Source: Acidimicrobiales bacterium | GTDB taxonomy: Bacteria; Actinomycetota; Acidimicrobiia; Acidimicrobiales; Bin134 | Length of the DNA stretch: 64,000 bases | Direction: 5' to 3' | NCBI GenBank assembly: GCA_965200775.1 | Contig: OZ241383.1 | Coordinates: forward strand, 132,280-196,279 | Part shown: positions 33,499 through 58,178 of the stretch, piece by piece | How the letters are laid out: every line of letters begins with the position of its first letter | How positions within the stretch are numbered: the first letter of the stretch is position 1 | The notes under the pieces: generated by a model | What the model saw: the letters and a program-made list of their open reading frames with translations, nothing else | Database searches by the model: none | Told to the model about the DNA's origin: nothing | Translations under genes and position numbers: made by a program

Positions 33499-34365
33499 TT
33501 AGGCGATGAGGGCTCGGAGGGTGGCCAGGCGGGGGGCGATGAGGGTTGAGATCACTGTGGGCCGGTCCTGGGGTGGGGCGAGGGCGGCTTCGCCCCACAG
33601 GGCTCGACCGACGGTGAACCCGGAGCAGCCGGATTCCATGGCCACTTCCAATTGGGCCTGGTAGCTCTCGAAGCTGCCCCCGCCAGACAGCAGGGTCCAG
33701 GGCATGTCGCAGCGGGCGGAGATCTCCTTGCAGGCCGCCGCCCACCGGGACCGGTCGGGGTCGTGGTCGGGATCGACGGGGAACGGCAGCTTCAGCACAT
33801 CGAAGCCCAGGGGAGCGAAGCGGTCCACGGTGTCGAGCACGATCCGGGGGCGGGTGGCAGGGTCGTCCACGGCGTAGAACATCGGCTCCACCAGCAGGGG
33901 GATCCCGACCCGGCGGCACTCGGCCCATATGTCGGCCACGGCACCTTCCTGGGCGGCGGCATGGGGGCGGTCGGGCCGGTAGAGCACGAGCAGCTTGGCC
34001 GAGGCCGCCCCGCAGTCGGCGGCGTCCTGCACCGTCCAGCCATCGAGCAGGGCAACCGGTGAGGCTTCGGGGTCGGCCATGTAACCCTGGGCCTCTAAAG
34101 CAGCGGTAAAGCCCACGCCGGCCGGAAGCTCACCGACAAGCTGGGGGATCGAGAACTCCGGCTCCAGCATCACCCCGGTGGCTCCGGCTGCCAGCCCTGC
34201 GATCAGGTCCCGTTTGAGGTCGGTGATGGACACGGCGGTCACCGAGTCGGGACGTTCCGGAGCCATCACAGCCCGCAGCGAGTCTCGGTGGTCCACAGCG
34301 AGGACCCCGAACCGCCCGTTGTGGCTGATGTCGTCGATGCCCACGGCGATACTGCTCTCGACCAT
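33499..34365 (-). CDS. Class I aldolase of LacD/DUF2090 type; candidate 2-deoxy-5-keto-D-gluconate-6-phosphate aldolase (IolJ-equivalent)
   Basis: FGVLAVDHRDSLRAVM resembles the LacD-type AlDQRgSL motif. The ATG overlaps the iolB stop (TAATG). It is the last gene of the iol-type operon. The functional assignment is an inference from context. Confidence 0.55.
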   Translation of the reverse strand: MVESSIAVGIDDISHNGRFGVLAVDHRDSLRAVMAPERPDSVTAVSITDLKRDLIAGLAAGATGVMLEPEFSIPQLVGELPAGVGFTAALEAQGYMADPEASPVALLDGWTVQDAADCGAASAKLLVLYRPDRPHAAAQEGAVADIWAECRRVGIPLLVEPMFYAVDDPATRPRIVLDTVDRFAPLGFDVLKLPFPVDPDHDPDRSRWAAACKEISARCDMPWTLLSGGGSFESYQAQLEVAMESGCSGFTVGRALWGEAALAPPQDRPTVISTLIAPRLATLRALIA

Positions 34366-35243
34366 TAGGCCACGACGGCGCCGGCCACCGGGAGGGTCCA
34401 CGCACCGGCTCCCCAGTCGGCCTCGATCCAGGTGTGCTCGGCGGCGAAGCACGGGGGTGTGCGCCTCTCATCACCGATCAGTTCCCCGGCCAGATAGTTG
34501 AGGAAGTACATGTTGGAGCTAGGGCAGGCCACCGACGTGTGATAGCCCTTGGGCACCAGCACCACGTCACCGTCGCGGGCCACCACCGCTTCGTCGAACC
34601 CTTCCTCGGCCCGCCAGTTCCGGTGCATGGTGTAGCCCTCGGGCCGGTCGAGGCGGAAGTAGTACACCTCCTCCAGGTAGGGGGAGCCGTCCCGCCCGTC
34701 GTGGCAGTGAGGGGGCCAGCCCGACCACGTTCCCCGGGGCACGAACACTTCGTAGAGGATGAGACGTTCGGCGGGCAGCGGATGGGCCAGCGAGTGAACC
34801 ACCTGTCGGTAGGCCTGACCCCCGCCCCTGATCTCCACCCGCATCTCTGCGGGTTCGAACACCCGGGTCGGATATAGCCCCTCGGCGGGGGCCGACCCCA
34901 CCGCCGCGGTCAGTGAGGCATCGGTCGATATCCGGTATTCCGTGCCCGGCGGGACGTAGACGATTCGCCCCAGCTCCTCGAACACCGAGGAGCGGCTGAT
35001 GGCGGCGTCTATGGGGCCTGCTTCCACCCGCCCCGCTCCCGACAGCGGGACGATTGCCGTCTCCCGGCCGGCCTCGACGCCCGACCAGGGTTCGGACGGG
35101 GTGAGTTCCACTACCGAGAAGGCCACGTTGTCCCAGCCGGCCGAGGCCGGGGTCACGTCCAGGATCCGTCCCGGACCAGCCGAGGGTCGGATCGGGCCCG
35201 AAGCCGGCCCAGACGGAGGGCCGGAGGAGTCAGTACTGGTCAT
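34365..35243 (-). CDS. iolB: 5-deoxy-glucuronate isomerase
   Basis: Cupin-type IolB: GWDNVAFSVVEL, IVPLSG, RQVVHSL...ERLILYEVFVPRGTWSGWPPHCHD...YLEEVYYFR. Start chosen at ATG 35243. Confidence 0.85.
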   Translation of the reverse strand: MTSTDSSGPPSGPASGPIRPSAGPGRILDVTPASAGWDNVAFSVVELTPSEPWSGVEAGRETAIVPLSGAGRVEAGPIDAAISRSSVFEELGRIVYVPPGTEYRISTDASLTAAVGSAPAEGLYPTRVFEPAEMRVEIRGGGQAYRQVVHSLAHPLPAERLILYEVFVPRGTWSGWPPHCHDGRDGSPYLEEVYYFRLDRPEGYTMHRNWRAEEGFDEAVVARDGDVVLVPKGYHTSVACPSSNMYFLNYLAGELIGDERRTPPCFAAEHTWIEADWGAGAWTLPVAGAVVA

Positions 35244-36225
35244 GGTTGCCCCCCGAGGGTGATGAAACGAGATCGCCGGTTTCCATTTCGAGCTTGAACA
35301 GCTCCAGTAGCTCGCGAGGGCCGAGCGGCTGGTAGCCGAGGACCTCGGCGGTGCGAACCGGGGCCAAAGTGGTGTCATAAGGGATGCGAGCACCCGACAG
35401 CGACGCCATCATCTCAGGGTCGGGAGGTACCGACCTCAAAAGAGTTGGGTCTTGGCCGAACACGTCACAGGCCAGGCGGGCCAGCTCCATGCGGCCGCTC
35501 GGCTCGGCCCCGCAGCAGTGGAATATCCCTTTGGCGTCGTCGATGGTCGCCATCAGCCACATGGCTTCGGCGCATTCGCTGGCCAGGCTGGGCGTGGCCG
35601 TCATGTTTATTTCGTCGCTCTCCCACACTCCGAACGGCAGGCCCTGCGACACCACATCCAGCACCGAGGTAACGAAGTAGCCGAAACCGGGGTCCTGGCC
35701 TCGTGGCATCTCGTCGCGAGCCCAGTGGATGCCGTTCACCGCCGACACCCGGGCCACAGCGGCCCGCTCCGCCCGGAGCAGGGCGGCCTGCTCGCTGAGC
35801 GCCTTCAGCACGCCGTAGTAGTTCACCGGATTGGGGGGAGCGTGCTCGTCGGCAGGGGCCTGGGTGCCGTCGAACACCCAGTCGGTGGACACCACGATGA
35901 GCTTGGCCCCCACCCGGTTGGCGGCCTCTGCCAAGGTGATGGTGGCCTCCACGTAGCTGCGCCACCCCAGCTCACGCTGGGCGTAGATTCCGGCCAGGTC
36001 GTTGAGGATCATGGCGTGGGCGATCACGTCGGGGTCGAACCCCTCCACGCTGGCCTGCACCGCATCCCGGTCGAGCAGGTCGAGCGGCTCGATGGTGTAA
36101 CCCTGGGGTTGGTCGGGGATGAAGGAGTGGACCGGACAGTGGACCACCGCGTTGTGGCGCTCGGCGAACACCTTGACGATGTTGGAACCGACAAAGCCGG
36201 TGCCCCCGGTGACGTAAGCCCTCAT
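35230..36225 (-). CDS. NAD(P)-dependent sugar epimerase/reductase (extended SDR, RmlD-like)
   Basis: MRAYVTGGTGFVGSNIV Rossmann start and YGVLKALSE (YxxxK). Start chosen at ATG 36225. Confidence 0.7.
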   Translation of the reverse strand: MRAYVTGGTGFVGSNIVKVFAERHNAVVHCPVHSFIPDQPQGYTIEPLDLLDRDAVQASVEGFDPDVIAHAMILNDLAGIYAQRELGWRSYVEATITLAEAANRVGAKLIVVSTDWVFDGTQAPADEHAPPNPVNYYGVLKALSEQAALLRAERAAVARVSAVNGIHWARDEMPRGQDPGFGYFVTSVLDVVSQGLPFGVWESDEINMTATPSLASECAEAMWLMATIDDAKGIFHCCGAEPSGRMELARLACDVFGQDPTLLRSVPPDPEMMASLSGARIPYDTTLAPVRTAEVLGYQPLGPRELLELFKLEMETGDLVSSPSGGNHDQY

Positions 36226-36299
36226 GGTTGGCTGCTCCTGAGATGGGGTAGAAGATGGCTGGTCATGGTCGCTTGGCGAACTGGCATGGTCTCGAACCC

Positions 36300-37307
36300 T
36301 CAGGTGATCTCGTCGGTTCGTACCGGGCGCTGCTCCCGCACCGAACGCCACGCGGCCAGCCCGATCACCAGCGGGGCCCGGCCGTCGGCCAATGTGACCG
36401 GCGAAGGTGCGCCACCCACCACATCCAAAAAAGCAGCCCACTGGGCCAGGTAGGAGGGGATGTACCGCTCGAGGAAGAAATAGGGCAGCGTCGGCCCCCG
36501 AGACCCATCGGCGGTGCGGGTGGTCGCGGTGGCTGTCAACGGGTTCTCCGAAGCAGCCATGCCCCCGGAACCGAACGCCTCCACCCGCTGGTCGTAGCCG
36601 TAAACCGCCTGGCGGCTGTTGTCGATGGTGCTGATGGCCCCGTTGGCGTGGTGGCAGACGATCACCGCAGTGTCGAGATCACCGACCTCCCCGATGGCCG
36701 GGTCGATGAGCACCGCGCCGGTGGCGTACACCTCGGTGACCTCGCTCCCGGTGATGAAGCGGATCATGTCGAAGTCGTGGATGGTCATGTCGCAGAAGAT
36801 CCCGCCCGATTCATCCAGGTACATCAGCGGAGGGGGCGCCGGGTCGCGGCTGGAGACCCGCACCAGGTGGACATCGCCGATCTCACCCGAGGCCACCTGA
36901 TTGTGAACATAGCGATGGCTAGGATCGAAACGGCGGTTGAACCCCACCTGCACCGGAATGCCGGCGGCCTCGGCGGCGGCGATACCCCGGTCGACTTCGG
37001 CCAGGTTGAGGCCCAGCGGCTTCTCCACGAACGCAGCCTTTCCGGCCTCGGCCGCCGCCACCAGCAGGTCCACATGGGTGTGGGTGGAGCTGCACACCGC
37101 CACAGCATCCACGTCGGCGGCTTCGAGCAGGGCCCCTGGCGATGGGGCGTGGCGTGTACCCAGTTCGGTGGCCAGCGCGGCCGCTGCGTCGTCCACCACG
37201 TCGTACACCGCTGCCAGCTCGGCCCCGGCCACCTGGTGGGTGATCAGCTCGGCGTGCATCCGCCCGATCCGACCGCAGCCCAACACCCCGATACGAACAG
37301 TGTTCAT
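36300..37307 (-). CDS. iolG: Inositol 2-dehydrogenase-type Gfo/Idh/MocA oxidoreductase
   Basis: VRIGVLGCGRIGRMHAELI, EKPL, and IolG-like length. The ATG overlaps the stop of the upstream oxygenase gene (ATGA). Confidence 0.8.
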   Translation of the reverse strand: MNTVRIGVLGCGRIGRMHAELITHQVAGAELAAVYDVVDDAAAALATELGTRHAPSPGALLEAADVDAVAVCSSTHTHVDLLVAAAEAGKAAFVEKPLGLNLAEVDRGIAAAEAAGIPVQVGFNRRFDPSHRYVHNQVASGEIGDVHLVRVSSRDPAPPPLMYLDESGGIFCDMTIHDFDMIRFITGSEVTEVYATGAVLIDPAIGEVGDLDTAVIVCHHANGAISTIDNSRQAVYGYDQRVEAFGSGGMAASENPLTATATTRTADGSRGPTLPYFFLERYIPSYLAQWAAFLDVVGGAPSPVTLADGRAPLVIGLAAWRSVREQRPVRTDEIT

Positions 37308-38752
37308 GGGCGCTCCCTTTCCGACGCTGCCTTCAGGGCAGACACCACCCGACCGCTGCGGATCTCCACGGGGTAAAGGGCCAGCGGTTTCTTGGCCGGG
37401 CGGCGCACCGCCTCGCCGGTGCGGAGGTCGAAACGCCCGTTGTGCTTGGGGCATTCCACCACGTAGTCCAGCACCGCGCCCTCTGCCAGGTGGGCCTCCT
37501 GGTGGGTGCAGAGTCCGTCGCTGCACACCAGGGTGCCGTCGGCCAGGCAGAACAGGGCGTAGGTGGCGTCGCCCACGTCAAGCCGCCTTACCCCACCGGG
37601 AGCGAGCTCGTCGGCCGGGCCCAGGTCGAACCAGCCATCGTGACGGTTACCGGCCCAAACGGTGTGCCCGGTGTTCACGTGCGACCGGCCGGCGCCGGCC
37701 ACATCCGGCAGGTCGGGGCGGGGCTTGTCGTAGGCCGGGTCGCGCCACTGGCGCCGCAGGGTGGCCAGGATGTCCCGGTAGGCCGACCAGGTACCGGGCG
37801 ACGCCGGGGCCAGGTGGTACTTCACCTCGTGGTGCAGCGCGGGGAGGGCGTAGTAGGGCACCGAGGGGAAGATGTGGTGCTCCACGTGGTAGTTCATGTT
37901 GGAGTACAGGAAGCGGAAGACCGGGTTCATGTACACGGTTCGGGTGTTGAGGCGGTGGTCGAGCACGTTCTCCCGCAGCCCTGCGTGCTGTGTGATGGCG
38001 AAGAACACCATGAGCCAGGCCCCGTAGATGGTGGGCAGCCCCACAAACAGCAGGGGCACGATGGTCCACGCCGCCACCGACCAGGCTGTCACCCCGGCCA
38101 GGATGGCGATGTAGGCCCGGGACTCCCACCGCAGCTTGCCCAGCTCGTCTGCCGGAATGAACGAGCGGGCCTCCTCGTCGATGCGTCCCACGGCGTGCTC
38201 GGCGGTGCGCAGAACCATCTTGGGTACGTTCAAGATGGGCAGGAACACGAGGGTCACCGCACCGGCCGACGAGGGGCGGGGGAAGATGATCTCGGCGTCA
38301 CGCCCCACCACGATGGTGTCGGTGTGGTGCCGCACATGAGACCACCGCCACAGGGTGGGCTGGCGCAGCAGCATGAACGAGGCCAGGTAGTACACCACGT
38401 CGTTTAGCCGCTTGGACTTGAAGGCCGTCCCGTGGCCGCACTCGTGCCAGCGGGAGTCACCGGCTCCCCCGTATAGGGCGCCGTAGGCCGCGAAGGCCGG
38501 GACGGCCCACCAGGAGCCCAGCGAGATGAAGGCCAGGTAGCCGAATCCCCCCAGCAGGGCCAGCCAGGCCACGGTGTCCACCCCGGCCCGAACGTTGCCC
38601 CTCACCTGAAGCTCGCGCAACCGCTCGGGGTCGATCGGGGGGCGGAACCACTCGGCCTCCACCAGGCCTGCACTTTCCGCTCGGGCGGCCTCCGGTCCGC
38701 CGACCCGGTAGTCACGCCCGGCGGCACTCACCGGTGCCTCCTCGATCACCAT
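37304..38752 (-). CDS. Membrane di-iron fatty-acid-desaturase-family oxygenase fused to a C-terminal Rieske [2Fe-2S] domain (MocD-MocE-like fusion)
   Basis: His boxes HECGH, HVRHH and HVEHH with TM segments. The C-terminal CTHQEAHL...CPKHNGRF is the Rieske C-x-H...C-x-x-H motif. The gene is translationally coupled on both sides: ATGGTGA with iolD and ATGA with iolG. Confidence 0.8.
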   Translation of the reverse strand: MVIEEAPVSAAGRDYRVGGPEAARAESAGLVEAEWFRPPIDPERLRELQVRGNVRAGVDTVAWLALLGGFGYLAFISLGSWWAVPAFAAYGALYGGAGDSRWHECGHGTAFKSKRLNDVVYYLASFMLLRQPTLWRWSHVRHHTDTIVVGRDAEIIFPRPSSAGAVTLVFLPILNVPKMVLRTAEHAVGRIDEEARSFIPADELGKLRWESRAYIAILAGVTAWSVAAWTIVPLLFVGLPTIYGAWLMVFFAITQHAGLRENVLDHRLNTRTVYMNPVFRFLYSNMNYHVEHHIFPSVPYYALPALHHEVKYHLAPASPGTWSAYRDILATLRRQWRDPAYDKPRPDLPDVAGAGRSHVNTGHTVWAGNRHDGWFDLGPADELAPGGVRRLDVGDATYALFCLADGTLVCSDGLCTHQEAHLAEGAVLDYVVECPKHNGRFDLRTGEAVRRPAKKPLALYPVEIRSGRVVSALKAASERERP

Positions 38753-40689
38753 CCCACCCTCTGGGCCGACTTGTCGGATTCCATCGCGGCCCGGGCTGCT
38801 CGCACATCGGGGCTGGCGCTTACCTCGGGCACCCCCACCTCCCAGAACGAACCACCCTCGGTCCACCGGTAAGCGTGTGTCCGCAGGGCGATCACGTAGG
38901 TGCGCTCGGAGGCCCGGGACCTTCCGAAAGCGGCCTCCAGTTCGGCGATTGTGGACACGGTCTCGGCCTCACAGCCCATCGACGCGGCGTGGGCGGCGAA
39001 GTCTACCGCGGTTACCTCCTGCACCCGGGAATCGACGATGAGGTTGTTGAACGGCACCCCTCCCTGGGCCAACTGCAAGCGGTTGATCACCGCGTAGCCC
39101 CCGTTGTCGCACACGATCACGATGAGCTTGTGGCCGGTCAGCACCGTGCTGTACAGGTCGCTGTTCATCATCAGGTAGGAGCCGTCGCCCACCAGCACCA
39201 CCACCTCCCGGTCGGGCAACGCCATCTTGGCCCCCCACCCGCCGGAGATCTCGTAGCCCATGCAGGAGTAGCCGTACTCGCAGTCGAAGGAGTGGACGGA
39301 CCGGCCCCGCCACCCGTTCACCAGTTCGCCGGGGAACCCTCCGGCAGCAGCCAGCACGTAGGTGGACTCGCCGGCGGCCCGATCAACCACCCCCACCACC
39401 TGGGCGTAGGTTGGAAGGTCGGCCTGATCGTCCCCATCATCCCCGGTGGCCTGGTTGGGGGCGGCCACTATCTCGGGAGCGGCGATCTTGTCGATGTAGG
39501 CGTGGTACTGCGAGGTTTCCGACGAAGCCCGATCGGACCATTCCTCTGGTCCCCGGTAGCGGCCCAGCGCAGCGCTCAGCTCGTCGAGACCCTCGCGGGC
39601 GTCGGCCACCAGCGGTAGCGACCGGTGTTTGGTGGCGTCGAAGCGGGCCGCGTTCAGGCCGATGATCCGAACCTCATCGCCGCCTCCGAACACGGTCCAC
39701 GATCCGGTCACGAAGTCCCCGAGGCGGGTGCCCACCGCCAGCACCACGTCGGCCTCGGCGGCCATGGCGTTGGCCGAGGTGCAGCCGGTCACGCCGATGG
39801 GGCCGCAGTTGAGCCGGTGGTCTGCCACCAGCGAGGTGCGCCCGGCCACCGTCTCCACCACCGGGATGTTGTGGGCTTCGGCGAAGTCACGCAGGCGGTC
39901 CTCGGCCAGCGACCAGTGAACCCCGCCCCCGGCGATGATGAGCGGTCGCTCGGCGGCGGCCAGCGCGTCGGCAGCCCGGCGCAGCTCCCCGGTATCGGGC
40001 CGGGGACGGCGAATCTCGTGAACCGTCTCCTCGAAGAACCGGGCCGGGAAGTCGAAGGCCTCGCCCTGTATGTCCTGGGGGAGGCTGATAAAGGCCGGTC
40101 CACACTCGCCAGGGTCGAGCATGGTGTGTATTGCATGGGGCAGGGAATGGGTGATCTGCTCGGGAGCGGTGATCCGGTCCCAGTAACGCACCACCGGTTT
40201 GAAGGCGTCGTTGACGGTGGTGGCCGGAGCGTTGAAGTGCTCAACCTGCTGCAGCACCGGGTCGGGGATGCGGCTGTTGAAGGTGTCACCGGCCAGCAGC
40301 AGTAGGGGCATCCGGTTGGCCATGGCCACCGCGGCGGCGGTCACCATGTTGGTGGCACCGGGGCCGATGGAGCTGGTGGCGGCCATGATGCGGCGGCGGC
40401 GGTTGGCCTTGGCGAAGGCCACCGCGGCCAGGGCCATGCCCTGCTCGTTTTGGCCTCTCCAGGTGGGCAGCGCCTCGCCGGCCTGTTCCAGCTCGTGTCC
40501 GAGGCAGGTGACGTTGCCGTGGCCGAAGATGGCGAACACCCCGGCGAACAGCGGGACGGTGCCGTCCCTGGCTTCAGGGCCGCCCCGCACGTGGTCGGGA
40601 CCGGCAACCTCGGGGCCCACCGCCGCGATGCGTTGGGCGGCCATGTAGCGCACGATGGCCCCCGACGCCGTGATGCGGATGGTATCCAT
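38746..40689 (-). CDS. iolD: 3D-(3,5/4)-trihydroxycyclohexane-1,2-dione acylhydrolase (TPP enzyme)
   Basis: 647 aa of the acetolactate-synthase-like TPP family. It has the IolD-typical N-terminus (TIRITASGAIVRYMAAQ) and the TPP-binding GDGSYLMMNSDLYS. Confidence 0.88.
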   Translation of the reverse strand: MDTIRITASGAIVRYMAAQRIAAVGPEVAGPDHVRGGPEARDGTVPLFAGVFAIFGHGNVTCLGHELEQAGEALPTWRGQNEQGMALAAVAFAKANRRRRIMAATSSIGPGATNMVTAAAVAMANRMPLLLLAGDTFNSRIPDPVLQQVEHFNAPATTVNDAFKPVVRYWDRITAPEQITHSLPHAIHTMLDPGECGPAFISLPQDIQGEAFDFPARFFEETVHEIRRPRPDTGELRRAADALAAAERPLIIAGGGVHWSLAEDRLRDFAEAHNIPVVETVAGRTSLVADHRLNCGPIGVTGCTSANAMAAEADVVLAVGTRLGDFVTGSWTVFGGGDEVRIIGLNAARFDATKHRSLPLVADAREGLDELSAALGRYRGPEEWSDRASSETSQYHAYIDKIAAPEIVAAPNQATGDDGDDQADLPTYAQVVGVVDRAAGESTYVLAAAGGFPGELVNGWRGRSVHSFDCEYGYSCMGYEISGGWGAKMALPDREVVVLVGDGSYLMMNSDLYSTVLTGHKLIVIVCDNGGYAVINRLQLAQGGVPFNNLIVDSRVQEVTAVDFAAHAASMGCEAETVSTIAELEAAFGRSRASERTYVIALRTHAYRWTEGGSFWEVGVPEVSASPDVRAARAAMESDKSAQRVGW

Positions 40690-40701: not shown

Positions 40702-41877
40702 TCAGTCGATCCTCAACGACTCCACGTCTTCCCACCGGCCAGTTTCCCAGCTTTTGAGCATGGCGGCCTGCACGCTCACGCAGGCCAGCGCCTGCTCCAT
40801 GCCAGCGCCGTGGGGCCGTCCCTCGGCCACCGCCGAGAGGAATTCGTGGTCCTGGATGGCCACAAGGTCCTCGAAGCCGATGGAGTTGGCGTCGCCGGGG
40901 ACGAAGGCCCCGTGGTAGGGGTGGCGCTCGCCAGCGCGCACCGTGGTGTAGCCCTGCTGGGGGTCGGCGGCCCGGAAGTGTTGGAGCTCGTTGAGGGTCT
41001 CGTGGTTCCAGCTCAGCGCCCCCTCGGTGCCGTAAACGTCGAACGCCATCTGGCTCTGCGGACCGACGATGGCCCGCCCGGCCTCGAACACGCCCCGGCT
41101 ACCGTTCGCGAACACAGCCAGCGCTCCGAAGTAGTCCTCGTTGGTGACCTCACCGGTGGGATCGCCGGGCTTGCCCCGGTCGTAGTGGGTGCCCGCTTCC
41201 GACGGCAGCGGGCGCTGCTTGATGAACGTCTCCCCGGTGCCCACCACCCGGGTGATCGGTCCGTTGAGCATCATGGCCAGGTCCACGGCGTGGCTCAGGA
41301 TGTCGGTGGTGACCCCGTGGCCGGCCTGGTCGATCAGAAAGCGCCAAGAAAGTAGGCCCAGCGGGTCGGCCCCGTACATGGAGAAGAACCGCCCCCGGTA
41401 GTTGGTTATCTCCCCCAGGTCGCCGGCTTCGATGAGTCGGCGGGCGTGCAGCACCAGCGGGGCGAAGCGGTAGTTGTAGCCCACACCGGTGACGACCCCG
41501 GCCCGGCGGCAGGCTTGTTCGATCCGGGCGGTTTGGACCGGGGTTCCCCCGGCCGGCTTCTCGCAGAACACATGCTTTCCGGCTTCGGCGGCCGCGGTGG
41601 CCACCGGCTCGTGGAGCATGTTGGGAGCGCAGATCACCACCACGTCGGCGTCGGGATGGTCCACCGCGGCCCGCCAATCGCCGGTTGTATCCCTGAAACC
41701 GAAGGCGCTCCTGGCGGCGTGGAGCCGGGAATCGACGGTGTCGGAGCACACCACCAGGTCGGGGTGGTAGGGCCGATCCTCGAACAGGGTGGGCAGGCGG
41801 AGGTAGGAGCGGGAGTGGGCCTGCCCCATCCACCCGAATCCCACCACGGCCAGCCCGATGCGCCTTGGGGCGGTCAT
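40702..41877 (-). CDS. Gfo/Idh/MocA family oxidoreductase
   Basis: IGLAVVGFGWMGQAHSRSY Rossmann start, FCEKP motif, 391 aa. Confidence 0.8.
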   Translation of the reverse strand: MTAPRRIGLAVVGFGWMGQAHSRSYLRLPTLFEDRPYHPDLVVCSDTVDSRLHAARSAFGFRDTTGDWRAAVDHPDADVVVICAPNMLHEPVATAAAEAGKHVFCEKPAGGTPVQTARIEQACRRAGVVTGVGYNYRFAPLVLHARRLIEAGDLGEITNYRGRFFSMYGADPLGLLSWRFLIDQAGHGVTTDILSHAVDLAMMLNGPITRVVGTGETFIKQRPLPSEAGTHYDRGKPGDPTGEVTNEDYFGALAVFANGSRGVFEAGRAIVGPQSQMAFDVYGTEGALSWNHETLNELQHFRAADPQQGYTTVRAGERHPYHGAFVPGDANSIGFEDLVAIQDHEFLSAVAEGRPHGAGMEQALACVSVQAAMLKSWETGRWEDVESLRID

Positions 41878-42851
41878 TGGTTGGTTACGGTGCGACGGTC
41901 GACGCTGGGATGGGCGGCGGCCGGGTCGAGCAGGTGCTCGGGGGTGCCGCCCCGCAGCCAGGTCACGGCCTGCTCCACCGCCTGGCCCACCAGGCGGACG
42001 AGGCCCACGGTGGTGGCCGAGGCCACGTGGGGGGTGACCACCACGTTTTCCCGGCCCAGCAGCGGATGGTCGGGGGGGAGGGGCTCGGGTTCGGTCACAT
42101 CAAGGCCGGCACCCGCCACTTGGCCCGAGTCGAGTGCGTCGAGCAGGGCTTGTTGATCCAGCAGGGCACCCCGGGCGCAGTTGACGATGACCACGCCAGG
42201 GCTCATGGCCGCCAGTGAATCGGGATTGATTATGTGGCGGGTCTCGGGCGTGGCCGGGGCGTGAAGCGAGACCACATCGGACTCGGCCCAAAGCCGGTCA
42301 AGTTCCACCAGCTCGCCCACCGGGGAGGCCGACAGGTACGGGTCGTAAACGAGCACGCTCATGCCCAGGGCCTCGGCGTAATGCCCTAGGAGACTGCCGA
42401 TGCGCCCGCATCCCACCAGTCCCAGGGTGCGCCCGTCCAGCTCGAGCGCCCCGGCTCCGGTGATCTGGCGGGGTCCGCCGGGGAAGCCCTTGGCGAGGCG
42501 TTGCTCGGATACCTTGAGCCGCTTGGTCACCGCCAGCATCAGGGCCAGCGCGTGCTCGGCAGTGGAGACGGTGGGAGCGTCGGGGGTGTTGCAGGCCGCC
42601 ACCCCTTGAGCGGCACAGGCCGCCACGTCCACGTTGTCGTAGCCGATGCCGGAACGGGCCACCACCTTGAGGTTGGGAAGACGGCGGCAAGCGTCGACGT
42701 CCCACGGCTGGTCCGCGGCCACCACCACGCCGTCGGCCGAGTCAGGGCCGTCCACCAACTCCACGTCGGGAGGGATGGCAACGCCGGCCGGGGGGGTCCG
42801 GTCGATCCAGATCCGGATCTTGGATTCGGCGCTGGTCATGGTCATGCTCAA
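41874..42851 (-). CDS. D-isomer-specific 2-hydroxyacid dehydrogenase family protein
   Basis: GRTLGLVGCGRIGSLLGHYAEALGMSVLVYDP NAD-binding motif and a catalytic-region NCARG...D...TPH. Confidence 0.8.
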   Translation of the reverse strand: MSMTMTSAESKIRIWIDRTPPAGVAIPPDVELVDGPDSADGVVVAADQPWDVDACRRLPNLKVVARSGIGYDNVDVAACAAQGVAACNTPDAPTVSTAEHALALMLAVTKRLKVSEQRLAKGFPGGPRQITGAGALELDGRTLGLVGCGRIGSLLGHYAEALGMSVLVYDPYLSASPVGELVELDRLWAESDVVSLHAPATPETRHIINPDSLAAMSPGVVIVNCARGALLDQQALLDALDSGQVAGAGLDVTEPEPLPPDHPLLGRENVVVTPHVASATTVGLVRLVGQAVEQAVTWLRGGTPEHLLDPAAAHPSVDRRTVTNQ

Positions 42852-42874: not shown

Positions 42875-43879
42875 TCACGGCCGGCCGGCCAGCATCTCGT
42901 CTATTTCGTCGGGGGTGGGCATAGCGTCGGAACAGGCCAGGCGACCGGCCACAATAGCGCCGGCCGCGTTGGCCCGGGTGACGATTGCCGCCGGGTCGAG
43001 GCCGGCCAGCAGCCCGTCGGCCAGCGACCCGCCGAAAGCGTCACCCGCTCCGAGACCGCAAACCACCTCGACCGGGATGGGCGGCACCTCGGTTCGGCTC
43101 TGCTCGGTGGCCACCAGAACCCCGTCGGCCCCCTGCTTCACGACGGCCAGCGACACCCCCCGTTCCAGCAGCCGGTCGGCAGCGGTGTGGGGGTCGGAGG
43201 TGCCGACGGCGATATCGCACTCGGTGCGGTTGCCCACCGCCACCGTTGCCCAGTCCACGGCCTGGCCCACATGGGCGCGGGCCTCCTCGAGGGATGCCCA
43301 GAAGCTGGGTCGGTAGTCGAGGTCGAGCACGGTGTGTGGACGGCGGCCGCGCCGGTGCAGCACCTCCATCACGGTGGAGCGGGACGGCTCCTGGGCAAAG
43401 CGGGACCCGGTAACCCACAGCACGGGAACGGTGGCCGCGATGTCGGGTATGTCGCCGGGCAGCAGGTTCATCTCCGGGCCCCGGGGCTCGCGGTAGAACA
43501 ACAGCGGCGGGTCGGTGGGAGGATCGAGGGCGCAGAACGCCAGAGCGGTGCGCAGCTCGGGGTCGGTGGAAACGTAGCGGTTGTCCACCCCGAACCCGTC
43601 GGAAAGGTGGGTGCGGATGTACTGGCCGAAGCCGTCGTCACCCACCCGAGTGACCACAGCGGCCCGCCGGCCGAGCCGGGCACAGGCCACAGCCACGTTG
43701 GTGGGGGAACCTCCGATCGACTTGGCGAACGACTCCACCTGGCTGAGCGGGACACCGCTTTGCTGTGGGTAGAGATCGACGCTTACCCGCCCGATGGTGA
43801 GCACCTCGATCTCGGTTGGGTCCGACTCGGTTGGGTCCGACCCACCAGGGCTGGAGATGTCGGTTCGAGTCTGCGGCAC
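42875..43879 (-). CDS. iolC: 5-dehydro-2-deoxygluconokinase (PfkB family)
   Basis: LTIGRVSVDLYPQQ, GGSPTNVAVACARLG, C-terminal GAGDAFGG, and iol context. It carries a 15-bp in-frame tandem duplication near the 5' end (SDPTESDPTE). Confidence 0.82.
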   Translation of the reverse strand: MPQTRTDISSPGGSDPTESDPTEIEVLTIGRVSVDLYPQQSGVPLSQVESFAKSIGGSPTNVAVACARLGRRAAVVTRVGDDGFGQYIRTHLSDGFGVDNRYVSTDPELRTALAFCALDPPTDPPLLFYREPRGPEMNLLPGDIPDIAATVPVLWVTGSRFAQEPSRSTVMEVLHRRGRRPHTVLDLDYRPSFWASLEEARAHVGQAVDWATVAVGNRTECDIAVGTSDPHTAADRLLERGVSLAVVKQGADGVLVATEQSRTEVPPIPVEVVCGLGAGDAFGGSLADGLLAGLDPAAIVTRANAAGAIVAGRLACSDAMPTPDEIDEMLAGRP

Positions 43880-43917: not shown

Positions 43918-44697
43918 TTACGCCCCCGCTTGGGCCAGCTCGTGCTGGAGGGCCTCCAGTTCGGCGCCACCTGCCATGAGCTGGGTCAGCTCGGCCTGCG
44001 ACAGCTCTTCCTTGGCCCAGTTGCCCATCGACTGACCCCGGTTCAGGATCACGAAGCGGTCACCCACCGGGTAGGCGTGGTTGGGGTTGTGGGTGATGAA
44101 GATCACGGCCAACCCCTGGTCGCGGGCCTCGACGATGCGCCGCAGCACCACCCCCGACTGCTTCACTCCCAGCGCCGAGGTTGGCTCGTCGAGTATCAGA
44201 ACCCGGGCCCCGAAGTAGCTGGCCCGGGCGATGGCCACCGACTGCCGCTCACCACCGGAGAGGGTGCCGACGGTCTGGTCGATGTCGCGGATGTCGATGC
44301 CCATCTTGCCCATCTCCTCCTTGGCGATGCGCTTGGCCCCCTCGATGTCGATCTGGCGGAAGGGCCAGATGCCGGTTTTGGGCTCCGACCCGAGGAAGAA
44401 GTTCCGCCACACCGACATGAGCGGCACCATGGCCAGGTCCTGGTACACGGTGGCAATGCCCCGGGCCAGCGCCTCGCGGGGCGAGTTGAAGCGCACCTCC
44501 TCGCCCTCCATGAGCAGCTTGCCCTCATCGTGCTGATGCACACCGGCGAGGATCTTGATGAAGGTGGACTTGCCCGCCCCGTTGTCGCCCAGCACGCAGG
44601 TGACCTCGCCGGGATTCACCGTTGTTGTCACGCCGGTGAGGGCGATGATGTTCCCGTAGAACTTCGAGATGTTGTGGAGTTCGAGGAAGTCGGCCAT
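43918..44697 (-). CDS. Sugar ABC transporter ATP-binding protein (single NBD, FrcA-like)
   Basis: Walker [10 protein letters not shown], signature LSGGERQ, Walker [11 protein letters not shown]; 259 aa. Confidence 0.9.
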
Positions 44698-44761
44698 CAG
44701 ACGGTCTCCTTGGTGATGGTTTGCCGTTGGGTCTTCGGTTCTCGGTTCGTTGTGGCGGCGG

Positions 44762-47008
44762 TCATCGGACCTTCTCCGCCTGGCTGCGTACGTAGTTGTT
44801 CACCAGCACCGACACCAGCAGCAGGGTGCCCAAAACCAGGAACCTCCAGTCGCTGTTCCAGGTGGCGAAGCCGATGCCTTGGGTAATCATGCCCCAGATC
44901 ACCGCGCCGATGGCCGCCCCTATAGCCGATCCGTAGCCGCCGGTGAGCAGGCACCCGCCGACCACCGCCACGATGATGTAGCGGAACTCGTTGCCGTCGC
45001 CCACGTTGGCCTGCACCGAGTTGAGCCGGAAGGCGATCACCATGCCGGTGACCCACGCCGACGCCGACACCAGCATGAACAGCGTTGTCTTGGTACGGGC
45101 CGCGGGCACACCCACCGAGCGGGAGGCGTCCTTGTTGCCTCCCACGGCAAAGATCCAGTTGCCGAACTGGGTGCGGGCCAGCACCCATGCCCCGAGCACG
45201 GCGAAGGCCAGAAACAGCATGACCCCCACACCGAATCGGGTCTGGGCCCGGGTGGCGGCCAGCTCGTCGCTGGTGATGAACAGCAGCCGGGCGGCCAGCC
45301 CCAACGCCACCGAGCCGAGGCCCACCGACACCAGGGAGCGTCCCACGCTCTCATCCGAGGTGAACAGGGTTCGGCCCAGCGTGCCGAGGGCGAATATGGC
45401 GAAGGCGGCGATGCCGCCCTTTGCCGCCCCGGTGATGATGCTGTAGAGGATGCCGTCGCCGTCAACCAGCTCGATGATGGCGAATACCAACCCGGCCCCT
45501 ATCCCCACCAGAGTGGCGATGCGGCTGATCTGGGCCCCCAGGGAAGCGGCTGAGCCGGCCGACATGGGCGGCGGAGCCGAGGTTCGCCTAGCGGAGAGGT
45601 ACTGAGCCACGGCGGCAGCAGCCAACAGAAGGGCAATCAGCAAAAGGGCGGTGAACAGCTCAACCCGGAGCTTGCGAGAGGCCGCCTCGGATTGAATGAA
45701 GAAGGCCAAGGCCGCAATGCCCGCCGATGTGAGCAGGGAGAGCACCACCGCCAGGTTCCGCGCCCTCGCCGCGATGGTGAGCAGCACCACCCCGGCCAGA
45801 GCCAAGCCCCCGAACAGGATGGCCCGAGCCCCCTGTACGGTAATCATGTAGCTGACCGCGGGGATCAGGGCGATGAGCGCACCGATCGCCGGATACCCCA
45901 CGCTCACCCTCCCTAGGGCGGCCAGTACCGCCAACACCCCGGTGGCACCTATACCGATGGCCAGAACAGTCCGGCCCGGGGTGCCGCTCAGGAAGTCGAG
46001 TTGGTCGGAGCTGTTGGAGTCCATCACCGCGGCGATGAGGATGGCGCCGACAATGGCCACGATTCCCCCAATCAGGAACCGAACCTGGTTCTGGCCGAGC
46101 TGCATCCGCATTGCCCGGTGTTCGGAGGGCACGTAGCGGGCCAGGCACCAGCCGGCCACTGCAACCAGCACCCCCGCCCCGGTGATGATCCCGAAAATCG
46201 AGTTGGAGCTGGTGCTGTCCTGTTGCAGCAGCAGGATGAAACCGATGGCCCCGGCTGCTGCACCGATGGCCGAGATGAGATAACCACCGGTGTTGGGTTG
46301 TTCCCTGCGGGCGTAGGCCAGTTCCATGGTTCCGAGAATCAGCACCACAGCGCCGATGATGAGCATTCCGCTCCAGGCCCAGTCCCGGTTGTCCCACACG
46401 TGGCCGTTGCGTACCCATTGCGCCCCGAAGATGTTGTCCCAGAACTCGTAGCCCCCGGACCGGTCGAGGCCCTCCACGATCACCTTGTTGGTGAACAGCT
46501 TTGCGAACCCGAGCTTGGCCCCTATGAGTATGAAGAAGGTGCCGAGGGTGACGATGAAGCTGGGCAGCGAGGTTTTCTCCACCAGGGTGCCGTTGAACCA
46601 CCCGATGGCCAGTGCAAACGCCAGCGACAACGGCACCGCGAGGTGGAGGCTGAGCCCGGCCCCGCCCAGTTCGGCGGTGTCGCTGCTCAGCAGGATCACG
46701 ATCACCGCGGTGGCCCCGGTCATCGATCCCGACGAGAGGTCGAACTCACCCCCGATCATCAACAGCGCCACCGGGACTGCCATCAGCCCGAGGGTGGCTG
46801 CCACATCCAGATAGTTGGCGGTGCCTCCTACTGTGCCGAACGCCTCGGAAACCATCCAGAACAAGAGCCAAACCCCGACGGCGCCGATCAGAGCGCCGAT
46901 CTCCGGCCGGGTGAGTAGCTGCTGTACCGGACCTCGGTGGGCTAATCGCTCATCACCGGCGGTTGATGCGGTGGCTGCAGTCTCTGTCGTTGTGGTCGTT
47001 TCAGCCAT
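44762..47008 (-). CDS. CUT2-type sugar ABC transporter permease with a very large central hydrophobic insertion (748 aa)
   Basis: The N-terminal part ([19 protein letters not shown]) and the C-terminal part ([20 protein letters not shown]...[23 protein letters not shown]) match RbsC-like permeases. About 400 aa of extra TM helices lie between them. Start chosen at ATG 47008. Confidence 0.8.
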
Positions 47009-47186
47009 GAGAGCCCCCCTCTCTGCCTGATGATACTGTGTTGGTTGGGCGTTGCGTGTTTGGTGGTGTCCTTCGGATGCTGTTTCTTCGTCTAACTGTA
47101 AGTCCAAACTTTAGACCAAGAGGCTGGGCCGGGTGGGAGAACCTGGCTTGGATTGTGATCGCAACGTGAGCTGCCCGGTCATGCGA

Positions 47187-47252
47187 GGGGCGCTGCCCGA
47201 GGATCTCGAGCAGCGCCCCTTCACATTTCTTAGACAGCGCGTTCAGCGCTGT
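47187..47252 (-). other. Two GC-rich stem-loops in the SBP-permease intergenic region: GGGGCGCTGC/GCAGCGCCCC (47187-47219) and ACAGCGC/GCGCTGT (47234-47252)
   Basis: Perfect 10-bp and 7-bp inverted repeats read directly. They may be an intra-operon attenuator or an mRNA-stability element. There is no clear U-tract on the minus strand. Confidence 0.35.
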
Positions 47253-47304
47253 TGATCCGAATCCAGCCAGCGTTCTTTCGGCCGGCCTTGTATCGGCTCC
47301 TGGC

Positions 47305-48342
47305 CTAGCGGGTTCCCTGGGAAACCAGTGCCTTGACCACCGAAGCGTTGGCGGTGTCGACGAAGCCCGGACCGGTGAGGATGGGCAGGCCGCCGCCCGC
47401 GGTGTTCTGGTTGGTGGCTTGCAGGTGCATGAGGATCACCGGCAGGTAACCCTGGAGGTACTGCTGCTGGTCAACGGTGAACGCCACGTCGCCCGACTCG
47501 ATGAGGTCGATGAGGTCGCTGGAGAGGTCGAATCCGCCGATGATCAGATCGCGGCCTGCCTGCTCCCCGGCTTCCAGAGCCCGAAGCGGCAGGTTGGGAC
47601 CGACGCCGAGCACGCCGTCGATGGACGGATCGCCCTGGAGCAGGGCGGCGATACCGTTCTGCTGCTCGTCGGGGTTGGCGTCCAGTCCGACGAATTCGGA
47701 GGTCACCTGACCGTTGAAGGTTTCGGCCAAGCCGTTGCAGCGCTCTTCGAGGGCCACGTTTGACTGCTCCTGGCGGGCGCAGAGCACGTGTGTGGCACCC
47801 AAGTCGTTGAACCGCTTGCCGGCACCGTTACCGGCCACGGTCTCGGTCTGGCCCACGTGGGTGACCGCGCCTAGGTCTTCGTAGTTGTTCACCCCGGAGT
47901 TGAGCGTGTACAGCGGGATTCCGGCGTCGACAACGGCACGGGCAGCAGCCTCAACGCCGGCCGGGTCGGCCAGCGAGATGGCAACACCATCGGAGCCGGC
48001 AGCGATGGCCGCTTCGATCTGCTGCGACTGAGCCAGAGCGTCGTTGTTGGAGCCGAAGTACACCACTTCGCAACCGATGGCTGCGGCAGCGTCCTCCACC
48101 GCCACCTCGACCACTGACCAGAAGGTGCCGGCATCACCATGGGTGATGACGTGGTAGGTCTTGTCGCAGCCCTGGGTGGGCTGGACTTCGACTACCTCGG
48201 TCGGCTCTTCCGTGGCAGGGGCCGCGGCCTCTGTCGGTTCGCTGGTGGCCGGTTCGCTGCTGCTGTCGTCGTCGTTGCCGCAAGCGGCCGCAACGAGTGT
48301 CAACGCCAGAAGCAGGGCAAACAGCTTCCATAGCTTGTTCAT
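47305..48342 (-). CDS. Sugar ABC transporter substrate-binding lipoprotein (periplasmic-binding-protein type I)
   Basis: Lipobox LVAAACGN, an acidic linker, and an RbsB-like fold (VITHGDAGTFWSVV...VDAGIPLYTLNSG). Confidence 0.85.
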   Translation of the reverse strand: MNKLWKLFALLLALTLVAAACGNDDDSSSEPATSEPTEAAAPATEEPTEVVEVQPTQGCDKTYHVITHGDAGTFWSVVEVAVEDAAAAIGCEVVYFGSNNDALAQSQQIEAAIAAGSDGVAISLADPAGVEAAARAVVDAGIPLYTLNSGVNNYEDLGAVTHVGQTETVAGNGAGKRFNDLGATHVLCARQEQSNVALEERCNGLAETFNGQVTSEFVGLDANPDEQQNGIAALLQGDPSIDGVLGVGPNLPLRALEAGEQAGRDLIIGGFDLSSDLIDLIESGDVAFTVDQQQYLQGYLPVILMHLQATNQNTAGGGLPILTGPGFVDTANASVVKALVSQGTR

Positions 48343-48356
48343 AGTTATTTTCCCTC

Positions 48357-49277
48357 TCAGTGTTGGTTGGTTTGTGAGGCTCCGGCACCCGCGAGGACGG
48401 GTTCCAGACTTTGCAGGAAGTCGATGCTCCGACCGGCGTCGTGCCTCAGCCGAGCGATCGCGGCGGGGTCGCCCTCCGCAATGGCGGCATCCTGCTCCAG
48501 GACGTACCAGAGGTCACGCCCCGATCTTTCCAGGGTGTCGACGATCTCGGTGATCGGCATTCCACCCTGTCCCAAGGGCGGGAACAGTCCCTGCTGTACG
48601 CCCTCCATGAGCGACAGCTTTCCCGCCACGACCTGGGCTGCGATTCCCAGGTCTGCGTCCTTCAGATGTACCAGCGCGATGCGGTCGAGATGGCGCTGGG
48701 TCATCTCGATCACGTCGCCGCCGCCGAGGAGGAGATGAGCGGTGTCCAGCACCAGCGCGGTATCGCTGATCTCCAGGATGTGCTCGGTTTCCGCTGCGGT
48801 TTCCAACAGGCATCCGAAGTGGGGATGAAGGGCCTGAATCAGCCCGTGTTCATGGGCGATTCGATTCACTTCGGCCAGCGTGGCTGCCACGTTGGACCAT
48901 TCGCTGCCGGCCAGAGGTTCCTGCCGCCAGTTCTGGGGATGGCTGACCGCACAGCTCACGAAAAAGCGTCCGCCTGCTCCTGCGATAAGGGCGGCAGCAT
49001 GGGACGCCGCCTTGAGGGTTGCCTTGGTCCGGGAGGGGTCGTGCAGCACCAGGGGGACGAAACCGCCCAGCAGCGACAAGCGGTGTCGGTCGAGTGTGGA
49101 GCGCAGCTTGGTGGGTTCGGTGGGCAGGTACCCGAACGACCCCAGCTCGGTGTGGGTAAAACCGGCATTGGCCATTTCAGCCAGCACGGTTTCGACCGGA
49201 AGCTGGTATCCCCATCCGGGCATCTCACAAACGCCCCAACTGATGGGCGCGGTCGCGGTTCGCTCAACCAGTTTCAT
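48357..49277 (-). CDS. iolE: Xylose-isomerase-like TIM-barrel protein, inosose dehydratase (IolE/MocC)-like
   Basis: APISWGVCEMPGWGYQLPVETVLAEMANAGFTHTELGSFGYLP resembles the IolE N-terminus. 306 aa in an iol/ABC context. Confidence 0.65.
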   Translation of the reverse strand: MKLVERTATAPISWGVCEMPGWGYQLPVETVLAEMANAGFTHTELGSFGYLPTEPTKLRSTLDRHRLSLLGGFVPLVLHDPSRTKATLKAASHAAALIAGAGGRFFVSCAVSHPQNWRQEPLAGSEWSNVAATLAEVNRIAHEHGLIQALHPHFGCLLETAAETEHILEISDTALVLDTAHLLLGGGDVIEMTQRHLDRIALVHLKDADLGIAAQVVAGKLSLMEGVQQGLFPPLGQGGMPITEIVDTLERSGRDLWYVLEQDAAIAEGDPAAIARLRHDAGRSIDFLQSLEPVLAGAGASQTNQH

Positions 49278-53044: not shown

Positions 53045-53326
53045 GTGGTCAAGCCGACGAACGTGCTGTTGGATCCCACTTTGCGGGCCACCGCCAAACG
53101 CAGGGCCGGTGATCGTGGCCTCAGCGTCTCGGCCTATATCCGTGAGCTGATTCGCGCTGACGACGCGGCAGCTAGTGCCACCGCTGGCGAAATAACTCCA
53201 CTGATCGGCTTGCTTGGTGCCGGCGCCGAACCCTCCGACATCGCACGCCACAAACACGAGATGGTTCGCCAGGCGTTCAGCGAGAACCTCGACCGCAAGC
53301 ACCCAACCGGAACCACCTCAGCGTGA
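53045..53326 (+). CDS. vapB: Type II antitoxin, ribbon-helix-helix (VapB-like)
   Basis: 93 aa. NVLLDPTLRATAKRRAGDRGLSVSAYIRELI is an RHH pattern. The stop overlaps the PIN gene start (GTGA). Confidence 0.75.
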   Translation: MVKPTNVLLDPTLRATAKRRAGDRGLSVSAYIRELIRADDAAASATAGEITPLIGLLGAGAEPSDIARHKHEMVRQAFSENLDRKHPTGTTSA

Positions 53327-53745
53327 GCCGCGTCTTCGTGGACACCAGTGCGTGGTACGCGCTGGCTGCACCCGACGACATCTCCCATGATCTCGCCGTG
53401 CGTTTGCTAGGTGAGCACCAGGGACGGTTGGCCACCACCGACCACGTTCTCGTGGAGACCTGGGCGGTTGCCCGCAACCGGCGAAATCGCGCCGCCGCCG
53501 ACAAGCTCGTGGCCACCATCGTTGACCGCAGCGTCGCCGAAGTCCTCACCGCAACCCCCCAGGACATCGTGACCGCCCTGAGCATCGCAGAGACATTCGC
53601 CGACCAGGACTTCTCGATGATCGACCGCACAAGCTGGGCCGTCATGGAGCGCTGTGGCATCACCGAGGCTGTGGCCTTCGACATCGACTTCGCCGTTTAC
53701 CGCTACGGCCCACACTTCCAGCAAGCCTTCACAATCCACCGCTAG
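53323..53745 (+). CDS. vapC: PIN-domain ribonuclease toxin VapC
   Basis: 140 aa with VFVDTSAWYAL (first acidic residue), HVLVETW, and FSMIDRTSWAVM...AFDIDF. Confidence 0.85.
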   Translation: MSRVFVDTSAWYALAAPDDISHDLAVRLLGEHQGRLATTDHVLVETWAVARNRRNRAAADKLVATIVDRSVAEVLTATPQDIVTALSIAETFADQDFSMIDRTSWAVMERCGITEAVAFDIDFAVYRYGPHFQQAFTIHR

Positions 53746-58130: not shown

Positions 58131-58178
58131 GCCGGGATGTTGGTGATGGTTTGACGTGATGAGGATCTTCTGAGTGAT

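Follow-up and report, generated by a model that had tools for sequence, protein, structure and literature searches.

The window analyzed here, a stretch of 64,000 nucleotides from contig OZ241383.1 of an Acidimicrobiales bacterium, contains on its minus strand a single gene that joins a MocD-like membrane oxygenase to a MocE-like Rieske ferredoxin and lies among genes for inositol catabolism (iol) (Table 1). The open reading frame (ORF) encodes 482 residues. The N-terminal part holds the FA_desaturase domain with three histidine boxes, and the C-terminal part is a Rieske [2Fe-2S] domain with two ligand motifs. The box histidines and the cluster ligands are invariant in an alignment of 76 homologues, as are H256, H266, and H307. 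A longer reading of 520 residues from a GTG start was rejected, since homologues align only from about residue 5–14 of the 482-residue form and public gene calls agree with the latter. Indeed, the 482-residue product has been called independently on public contigs encoding an identical protein, where the overlaps with the adjoining genes are the same. A hydropathy scan located hydrophobic stretches at residues 57–84, 162–182, and 213–255, which fits the usual paired-helix topology of membrane enzymes of the fatty acid desaturase (FADS) type. The AlphaFold2 model, with a mean predicted local distance difference test score (pLDDT) of 88 and a predicted template modeling score (pTM) of 0.84, is consistent with one packed two-domain unit. 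From these features and the homologies below, the protein is predicted to be anchored in the membrane and to act as a non-heme di-iron monooxygenase; it would belong to the MocD branch within the FA_desaturase/AlkB superfamily and carry a C-terminal MocE-type Rieske domain.

The gene lies between iolD and iolG in a run of 13 co-directional iol and ATP-binding cassette (ABC) transporter genes, which are separated by short gaps or overlap and extend from 49277 down to 33499 on the minus strand. As shown by its overlapping junctions, the fusion is translationally coupled with IolD and IolG. IolG, IolD, IolB, and IolC pass the NCBIfam equivalog cutoffs, and the IolE-like protein misses its own. 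The operon holds a near-complete iol set, with no sugar isomerase and no kinase except iolC; IolA, an aldehyde dehydrogenase, was not found among the scanned window ORFs. The second Gfo/Idh/MocA oxidoreductase is a constant partner of the fusion and occurs in nearly all iol-linked loci.

A sequence-only reading of the same stretch had described three histidine boxes and a C-terminal Rieske domain in one 482-residue ORF, overlaps with iolD and iolG, and an actinobacterial iol operon around them. Translation and Pfam confirmed the first of these, the overlaps were read directly as 7 and 4 nucleotides, and the equivalog scores and overlapping junctions support the operon, whose host belongs to the Acidimicrobiia. 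The same reading recognized counterparts of MocA, MocB, and MocC, and this holds at family level for two Gfo/Idh/MocA proteins, a binding protein, and an IolE-like TIM barrel. Yet, the binding protein, whose best NCBIfam match is the rhizopine binding protein, reaches only 194 bits against a cutoff of 420, and in plasmid searches it otherwise resembles generic sugar binding proteins.

Table 1. Features of the fusion gene, its operon, and related loci. Positions without a locus label refer to the window.
Feature	Position	Strand	Basis or remark
MocD-like/MocE-like fusion gene (membrane di-iron oxygenase + Rieske ferredoxin domain)	37304..38752	-	ORF, translation, Pfam/NCBIfam domains
FA_desaturase (PF00487), residues 80-315	37808..38515	-	Pfam E 5e-33, 115 bits vs cutoff 29.7
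His box 1 HECGH, residues 103-107	38432..38446	-	H103, H107 invariant
His box 2 HVRHH, residues 139-143	38324..38338	-	H139, H142, H143 invariant
His box 3 HVEHH, residues 289-293	37874..37888	-	H289, H292, H293 invariant
Rieske [2Fe-2S] ferredoxin-type domain (PF00355), residues 374-461	37370..37633	-	Pfam E 2.8e-16, 59.6 bits vs cutoff 20.3
Rieske cluster ligands C415-T-H417 … C434-P-K-H437 (CTH 415-417, CPKH 434-437)	37442..37510	-	C415, H417, C434, H437 invariant
7-nucleotide overlap ATGGTGA, fusion start/iolD stop	38746..38752	-	Read directly: iolD '...GGA TGG TGA', fusion 'ATG GTG ATC'
4-nucleotide overlap ATGA, iolG start/fusion stop	37304..37307	-	Read directly: fusion '...CCA TGA', iolG 'ATG AAC'
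IolE/MocC-like xylose-isomerase-type TIM barrel, first operon gene	48357..49277	-	PF01261; TIGR04379 152 bits, below 290 cutoff
ABC importer	43918..48342	-	Pfam; ATPase 43918-44697, double-length permease 44762-47107, substrate-binding protein 47305-48342
iolC (5-dehydro-2-deoxygluconokinase)	42875..43879	-	TIGR04382 342.4 bits vs cutoff 300
D-isomer-specific 2-hydroxyacid dehydrogenase	41874..42851	-	Pfam
Second Gfo/Idh/MocA oxidoreductase	40702..41877	-	Pfam; best NCBIfam levoglucosan dehydrogenase, 276 bits, below 650 cutoff
iolD (thiamine pyrophosphate-dependent trihydroxycyclohexane-1,2-dione acylhydrolase)	38746..40689	-	TIGR04377 807.5 bits vs cutoff 715
iolG (inositol 2-dehydrogenase)	36300..37307	-	TIGR04380 402.9 bits vs cutoff 355
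RmlD-like NAD-dependent short-chain dehydrogenase/reductase (SDR)	35230..36228	-	Pfam; directly after iolG also in L084, L088, L090
iolB (5-deoxy-glucuronate isomerase)	34365..35243	-	TIGR04378 210 bits vs cutoff 205
DeoC/LacD-type aldolase (IolJ role), last operon gene	33499..34365	-	PF01791, DUF2090; PRK12858 162 bits vs 184
Three-domain loci (~760 residues)	L041, L042, L046-L048, L050, L054-L057, L059, L066, L067, L069, L072-L080, L083		e.g. L046:9956-12238
Copies of the ~290-residue family	L041:10429-11316, L046:12242-13147, L048:2449-3366, L050:13078-14163, L076:12287-13123		

BLASTP alignments relate both parts of the fusion to a rhizobial gene pair. Residues 10–365 share 46% identity, with one gap, with the MocD of Sinorhizobium meliloti 1021 (Q92VY9, on pSymB), a protein named by genome annotators through homology (UniProt) rather than the genetically characterized MocD, and residues 374–473 share 40% identity, without gaps, with the adjoining MocE-family ferredoxin. 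In 473 plasmid records, the N-terminal 360 and C-terminal 100 residues matched two adjacent genes by tblastn; these are annotated as 'fatty acid desaturase family protein' and 'MocE family 2Fe-2S type ferredoxin', and a 'FAD-dependent oxidoreductase' lies next. No locus labeled as rhizopine catabolism was returned by the plasmid search with the binding protein or by the homologue search with the S. meliloti MocD. The best NCBIfam model for the Rieske domain is TIGR02377 (MocE_fam_FeS; 89.9 bits, E 8.7e-26), followed by HcaC/AndAb ferredoxins at 58.9–68.1 bits, and in one database source some copies of the fusion already carry the label 'MocE subfamily Rieske [2Fe-2S] domain protein'. These collinear matches uphold the earlier designation of a MocD–MocE-like fusion, and the protein is very likely a MocDE-type fused oxygenase. 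The alignment and profile check proposed with that designation gave PF00487, PF00355, and the two identities above, but the TIGR02377 cutoff was missed. The closest relatives (81–83% identity) bear the labels Candidatus Poriferisocius or Acidimicrobiia, several of them being from metagenome bins; from the names of these records, the source, a marine actinobacterium, is probably sponge-associated.

The role of the C-terminal domain was assessed by fold comparison. The Rieske domain matches ferredoxins such as CarAc over their full length (target TM-score ~0.9; 28–35% identity), whereas the alpha subunits of Rieske oxygenases align over their Rieske part only (target TM-score 0.25–0.3), which argues that this domain is an electron carrier and not a second catalytic domain. 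The identification of the whole protein as a Rieske non-heme iron oxygenase alpha subunit was likewise rejected, since the Rieske domain is C-terminal, comprises about 100 residues, and has full-length matches to ferredoxins only. A sequence search of the PDB with the fusion also returned Rieske ferredoxins only. When the full model was submitted to Foldseek, the matches were dominated by the Rieske domain; the membrane part gave chloroplast motor complex components as its best match, at a low TM-score, and neither AlkB nor SCD1 was among the best 50 matches listed.

The homologues appear in public records as 'fatty acid desaturase', the NCBI name, and the Pfam FA_desaturase domain and histidine boxes would suit a membrane-bound desaturase of fatty acids, or a lipid hydroxylase, placed in the operon by chance. 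Such an enzyme is highly improbable here. The desaturase and carotenoid-hydroxylase models gave 25–32 bits against cutoffs of 475–500; DesA scored 28.8 and DesB 32.3 bits against cutoffs of 500, and the range for DesA, DesB, the carotene hydroxylase CrtR, and the arginine hydroxylase GntB together was 25–33 bits. The AlkB models of NCBIfam gave no significant sequence match. GntB, a FADS-type enzyme, is a precedent for a polar substrate despite the weakness of its match. Furthermore, the nearest named relatives are MocD-like, the gene is translationally coupled to iolD and iolG in a conserved context, and a Rieske ferredoxin is fused to the enzyme, whereas a 2001 review, in the statement quoted from it in PMC8918992, found no ferredoxin-fused desaturases.

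To place the fusion within its family, 80 loci (one genome per species, flanks of up to 10 kb) and three plasmid loci (L001–L003) were surveyed; frame continuity was checked, and the window operon proteins and rhizobial MocF were used as tblastn queries. The family is compact, as an exhaustive profile search returned only 287 clusters (50% identity) at E ≤ 1e-30, and typical lengths are ~350 residues for stand-alone, ~475–500 for two-domain, and 760 for three-domain proteins. Split mocD/mocE genes occur at 28 loci (25 from the genome scan and L001–L003), in Proteobacteria, Paenibacillaceae, and a few others, and at 19 of these a MocF-like match lies within ~10 kb, in most cases immediately downstream. 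Two-domain fusions make up 31 loci, almost all from Acidimicrobiia. The remaining architecture, FADS–Rieske–FNR, was found at 24 loci of Verrucomicrobiota, Acidobacteriota, Chloroflexota, and one member of Bacteroidales. Beyond the Rieske domain, its ORFs continue for ~280 residues with an NAD-binding domain of the NqrF/ferredoxin–NAD(P)+ reductase (FNR) type (Pfam NAD_binding_1 and FAD_binding_6) ending in '…AYDEF', so that these proteins would be self-sufficient versions of MocDEF. A neighbor-joining tree of the oxygenase domain, based on distances and lacking support values, has three clades that coincide with the three architectures, and it places the window protein within the actinobacterial two-domain clade.

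The genomic context follows a related pattern. Of the 31 two-domain loci, 17 encode three or more of IolD, IolG, IolB, IolC, and the aldolase within 10 kb of the fusion, mostly in the order seen in the window, and two further loci carry part of the iol set; the iol-embedded relatives share 55–84% identity with the fusion. Six proteins were examined on their own contigs (the window protein, P0040, P0099, P0113, P0084, and P0056). Two of them, from independently sampled relatives, share the iol embedding: P0040 (62% identity) has the full iol arrangement and lies between iolD and iolG like the window protein, and P0099 (57%) has it too, although one additional SDR gene separates iolD from the fusion. 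Among the split loci, those of Burkholderia carry iolG and two TIM-barrel genes beside LacI-mocDEF, and iolG-like and TIM-barrel genes were found at others. The cyclitol link therefore recurs across phyla; it is strongest in the immediate relatives of the window but not universal. The sequence-only reading had named clustering with lipid or carotenoid enzymes, together with a lack of iol genes in relatives, as the outcome that would speak against it. The protein in fact groups with MocD-like enzymes and its closest relatives keep the iol genes, but distant members lie outside iol clusters.

Collectively, these observations indicate that the fusion probably serves cyclitol catabolism. A methylated or otherwise modified sugar is an improbable substrate by comparison, with the iol position then reflecting a mixed carbohydrate-utilization island. 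Three-domain relatives do adjoin genes for aldose 1-epimerase, RhaT and major facilitator superfamily (MFS) sugar transporters, and AraC regulators instead of iol genes; genuine xylA and xylB follow the fusion in Ilumatobacteraceae relatives, at one locus without iolD and iolG; and the mocDEF genes of Pseudomonas syringae lie beside xylA2 (PMC5132102). In the window itself, however, the fusion shares overlapping codons with iolD on one side and iolG on the other, the operon combines a near-complete iol set with no sugar isomerase and no kinase beyond iolC, and the closest relatives retain this exact arrangement.

A partner reductase was sought in the window and beside the related genes. With rhizobial MocF and the FNR domain taken from the three-domain fusions as tblastn queries, the window gave no match beyond one with an E-value of 0.012 over 28 residues; this best match, at 59868, lies inside a zinc-type alcohol dehydrogenase and was rejected as a reductase. 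Together with a Pfam scan that covered the window ORFs outside ~4.5–13.1 kb, apart from some short ones, this agrees with the earlier statement that no MocF-like reductase is visible in the window. No MocF-like or FNR-like match was present beside any of the two-domain Acidimicrobiia loci.

From these results, we infer an electron path, a substrate class, and an O-demethylation chemistry as follows. The MocB-like ABC system would import a substituted cyclitol. A reductase with its gene at another place in the genome would take electrons from NAD(P)H and deliver them through the fused Rieske cluster to the di-iron center at the cytoplasmic face of the membrane, where activated oxygen would hydroxylate the substituent; an O-methyl ether would thereby give a hemiacetal and then formaldehyde and free inositol. 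The product could then enter the pathway through IolG or the second Gfo/Idh/MocA dehydrogenase and proceed through the IolE-like protein, IolD, IolB, IolC, and the aldolase. A chain from reductase to Rieske cluster to di-iron center is the natural reading, because the split clade usually encodes an adjoining reductase and the three-domain clade has one fused. The missing cognate reductase would be no obstacle, since mocF was reportedly found to be non-essential for rhizopine catabolism in the 1998 work of Bahar and colleagues.

The mocDEF genes belong to a catabolic locus for rhizopine (3-O-methyl-scyllo-inosamine) and are rhizopine-inducible (PMC10107442, PMC6668481). In Rhizobium mesoamericanum, a root exudate with pinitol as its most concentrated compound induced homologues of mocDEF (PMC5789663), an effect that gives circumstantial support for demethylation. 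Because of this induction and the proposed role of MocDE on 3-O-methyl-scyllo-inosamine, O-demethylation is the most likely chemistry. The sequence-only reading had proposed that the cluster probably degrades an O-methylated or otherwise substituted inositol; the oxygenase–ferredoxin fusion that it described is present, but an O-methyl-inositol substrate and its demethylation by the fusion are about as likely as not.

The same architecture and cyclitol pathway could also serve another reaction, namely C–H hydroxylation of a deoxy- or C-methyl-cyclitol or attack on another ether or amine substituent, with cyclitols of the quercitol/viburnitol type or the marine C-methyl-inositols mytilitol and laminitol as candidate substrates. 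All ties of the fusion to the iol operon apply equally to this chemistry. C-methyl-inositols have been reported from the marine and sponge environment, and the organism is marine or sponge-associated. The second Gfo/Idh/MocA protein, the 2-hydroxyacid dehydrogenase, and the RmlD-like SDR could handle unusual stereoisomers or keto intermediates, and FADS/AlkB-type di-iron enzymes typically hydroxylate unactivated C–H bonds (for AlkB, PMC8918992). Nevertheless, the family has a single genetic model, in which 3-O-methyl-scyllo-inosamine loses its O-methyl group, and hydroxylation alone cannot remove a C-methyl group. Such a reaction is rather unlikely, and O-demethylation remains preferred.

Several observations weigh against a MocDE-like cyclitol demethylase. 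The Rieske domain stays under the curated TIGR02377 cutoff of 136.15 bits, and the comparison with studied proteins is indirect, made with the annotator-named MocD of S. meliloti 1021 rather than with the genetically characterized MocD of Rhizobium leguminosarum 1a or S. meliloti L5-30. The Pfam-scanned ORFs of the window include no reductase, no regulator (MocR-type and LacI included), and no formaldehyde-handling gene. Within the two-domain clade, P0113 (57% identity) sits in a partial arrangement without iolD and iolG, followed by xylA and xylB, and P0084, P0056, and other members are found away from iol clusters, with an MFS transporter, an alpha/beta hydrolase, or PHO4 as a neighbor. The demethylase role proposed for MocDE by Bahar and colleagues in 1998 is said to be a genetic and homology model, and a literature search found no paper with biochemistry for any protein of the MocD family. 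To our knowledge, no methyl-inositol has been described as a sponge or marine substrate.

The related loci showed further features. In two of them (L088:13174-15963, labeled Ilumatobacteraceae, and L089:8446-11200), xylA and xylB follow the cluster that contains the fusion; in L088 both exceed their NCBIfam equivalog cutoffs, and L089 is without iolD and iolG. The context differs at two marine Actinomycetota loci (L026:7808-10014 and L029:5955-8138), where the two-domain fusion is preceded by a protein of the glyoxalase fold, an HD-domain protein that weakly matches myo-inositol oxygenase, and an alpha/beta hydrolase. An unannotated family of ~290 residues with no Pfam match occurs near three-domain fusions and some split mocDE pairs (Table 1). 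Most copies are directly downstream; of the three at a distance of 1–5 kb, one is upstream. In hhalign comparisons of its three subfamilies, the probabilities of relationship are 99% and 98% for two pairs and 40% for the third, and one subfamily is related (93%) to the Burkholderia 'xylose isomerase' adjoining mocDEF; the family looks like a conserved TIM-barrel-type partner. In Rhizobiales, a paralogue similar to PanB (3-methyl-2-oxobutanoate hydroxymethyltransferase) and below the NCBIfam cutoffs follows mocDEF-like genes (L001:13059-13859, L003:12133-12948, L052, and L082, where no MocF-like match lies in between). It could capture the one-carbon unit or formaldehyde from demethylation, but was not used as evidence, being confined to Rhizobiales except for one weaker, more distant match at the Acidimicrobiales locus L043.

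Within the window, the permease ORF of the ABC importer measures 781 residues as the longest ORF and ~635–643 residues in relatives, about twice the usual length, and it appears from two BPD_transp_2 matches to be a fused double permease. The scanned flanking DNA contains housekeeping or unrelated genes, including those of the shikimate pathway, tRNA synthetases, mnmA, cysteine desulfurase, and ligA. Two adjacent proteins with fibronectin type III repeats are encoded at 55579-58703 on the minus strand; eukaryote-like domains of this type are often reported from sponge symbionts. The plus strand encodes a CotH kinase-like protein (15179-17128) and a stand-alone PIN-domain protein (53323-53745), possibly a toxin.

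If the proposed function is correct, the fusion would supply the entry step for substituted inositols such as pinitol and ononitol into the standard iol pathway and would mark these compounds as likely substrates of marine and sponge habitats. Thousands of 'fatty acid desaturase' entries would then be re-assigned to carbohydrate or cyclitol catabolism. It is tempting, if somewhat doubtful, to regard the MocD family as a broad class of di-iron membrane enzymes that oxidatively O-demethylate or de-alkylate polar cyclitols and sugars and come in three redox architectures, which would make it the di-iron counterpart of the P450 sugar demethylases. In that case, the iol-embedded two-domain form would mean that marine and sponge-associated Acidimicrobiia regularly draw carbon from substituted inositols. 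That MocDE feeds methylated cyclitols into the inositol pathway is a decades-old idea, and the fusion architecture is abundant in databases; the finding is thus useful to a specialist, not startling. MocD has been studied genetically only, and a natural oxygenase–ferredoxin fusion with self-sufficient three-domain relatives offers a convenient system for the first biochemistry of this enzyme.

Comparison with known systems clarifies the position of the fusion. A literature search found no paper describing a Rieske fusion to a MocD-type enzyme, and for demethylases of pinitol or methyl sugars in the MocD family it returned only P450 and Rieske-oxygenase systems. A genomic study of the Acidimicrobiia order UBA5794 describes iolCGDEB operons in sponge and sediment lineages and leaves the fusion gene unmentioned (PMC12008989). 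The C-terminal domain resembles CarAc, BphF/BphA3, TodB, and the naphthalene dioxygenase (NDO) ferredoxin in fold and ligands. However, CarAc-type ferredoxins are free-standing and serve soluble Rieske oxygenases, whereas the carrier of the fusion is tethered to a membrane di-iron enzyme. The proposed task is also that of the marine P450 carbohydrate O-demethylases acting on 6-O-methyl-D-galactose, which combine oxidative O-demethylation and formaldehyde release with a ferredoxin and a reductase (PMC6292453, PMC9400963). These are soluble heme enzymes and not membrane di-iron proteins, so the likeness is a functional analogy that presupposes the proposed chemistry.

Another parallel is found in the AlkB–rubredoxin and ferredoxin–ferredoxin reductase–AlkB proteins, in which a class III membrane di-iron hydroxylase from the superfamily of the fusion is likewise covalently joined to its electron-transfer partner; AlkB fusions are routinely mis-annotated as fatty acid desaturase (PMC8918992). 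Their carrier is a rubredoxin or plant-type ferredoxin, whereas that of the fusion is a C-terminal Rieske [2Fe-2S] domain, and the substrate predicted for the fusion is polar and not an alkane. The three-domain FADS–Rieske–FNR proteins have the same oxygenase and Rieske modules (44–50% identity) but differ by their added NqrF/FNR-type NAD(P)H reductase domain and by sugar-type rather than iol neighbors. The greatest likeness is to MocD/MocE/MocF of S. meliloti, R. leguminosarum, and other Proteobacteria, with a homologous oxygenase and Rieske ferredoxin in the same order and with linkage to inositol genes. Yet, the fusion combines oxygenase and ferredoxin in one polypeptide, has no MocF-type reductase and no MocR/LacI regulator nearby, lies inside a canonical iol operon instead of a separate mocDEF unit, and belongs to an Acidimicrobiia host, a separate phylogenetic clade, and a Rieske type below the TIGR02377 cutoff. 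By strict membership, it departs from MocDEF on two features, the MocE cutoff and a linked MocF, although it probably works like MocDEF.

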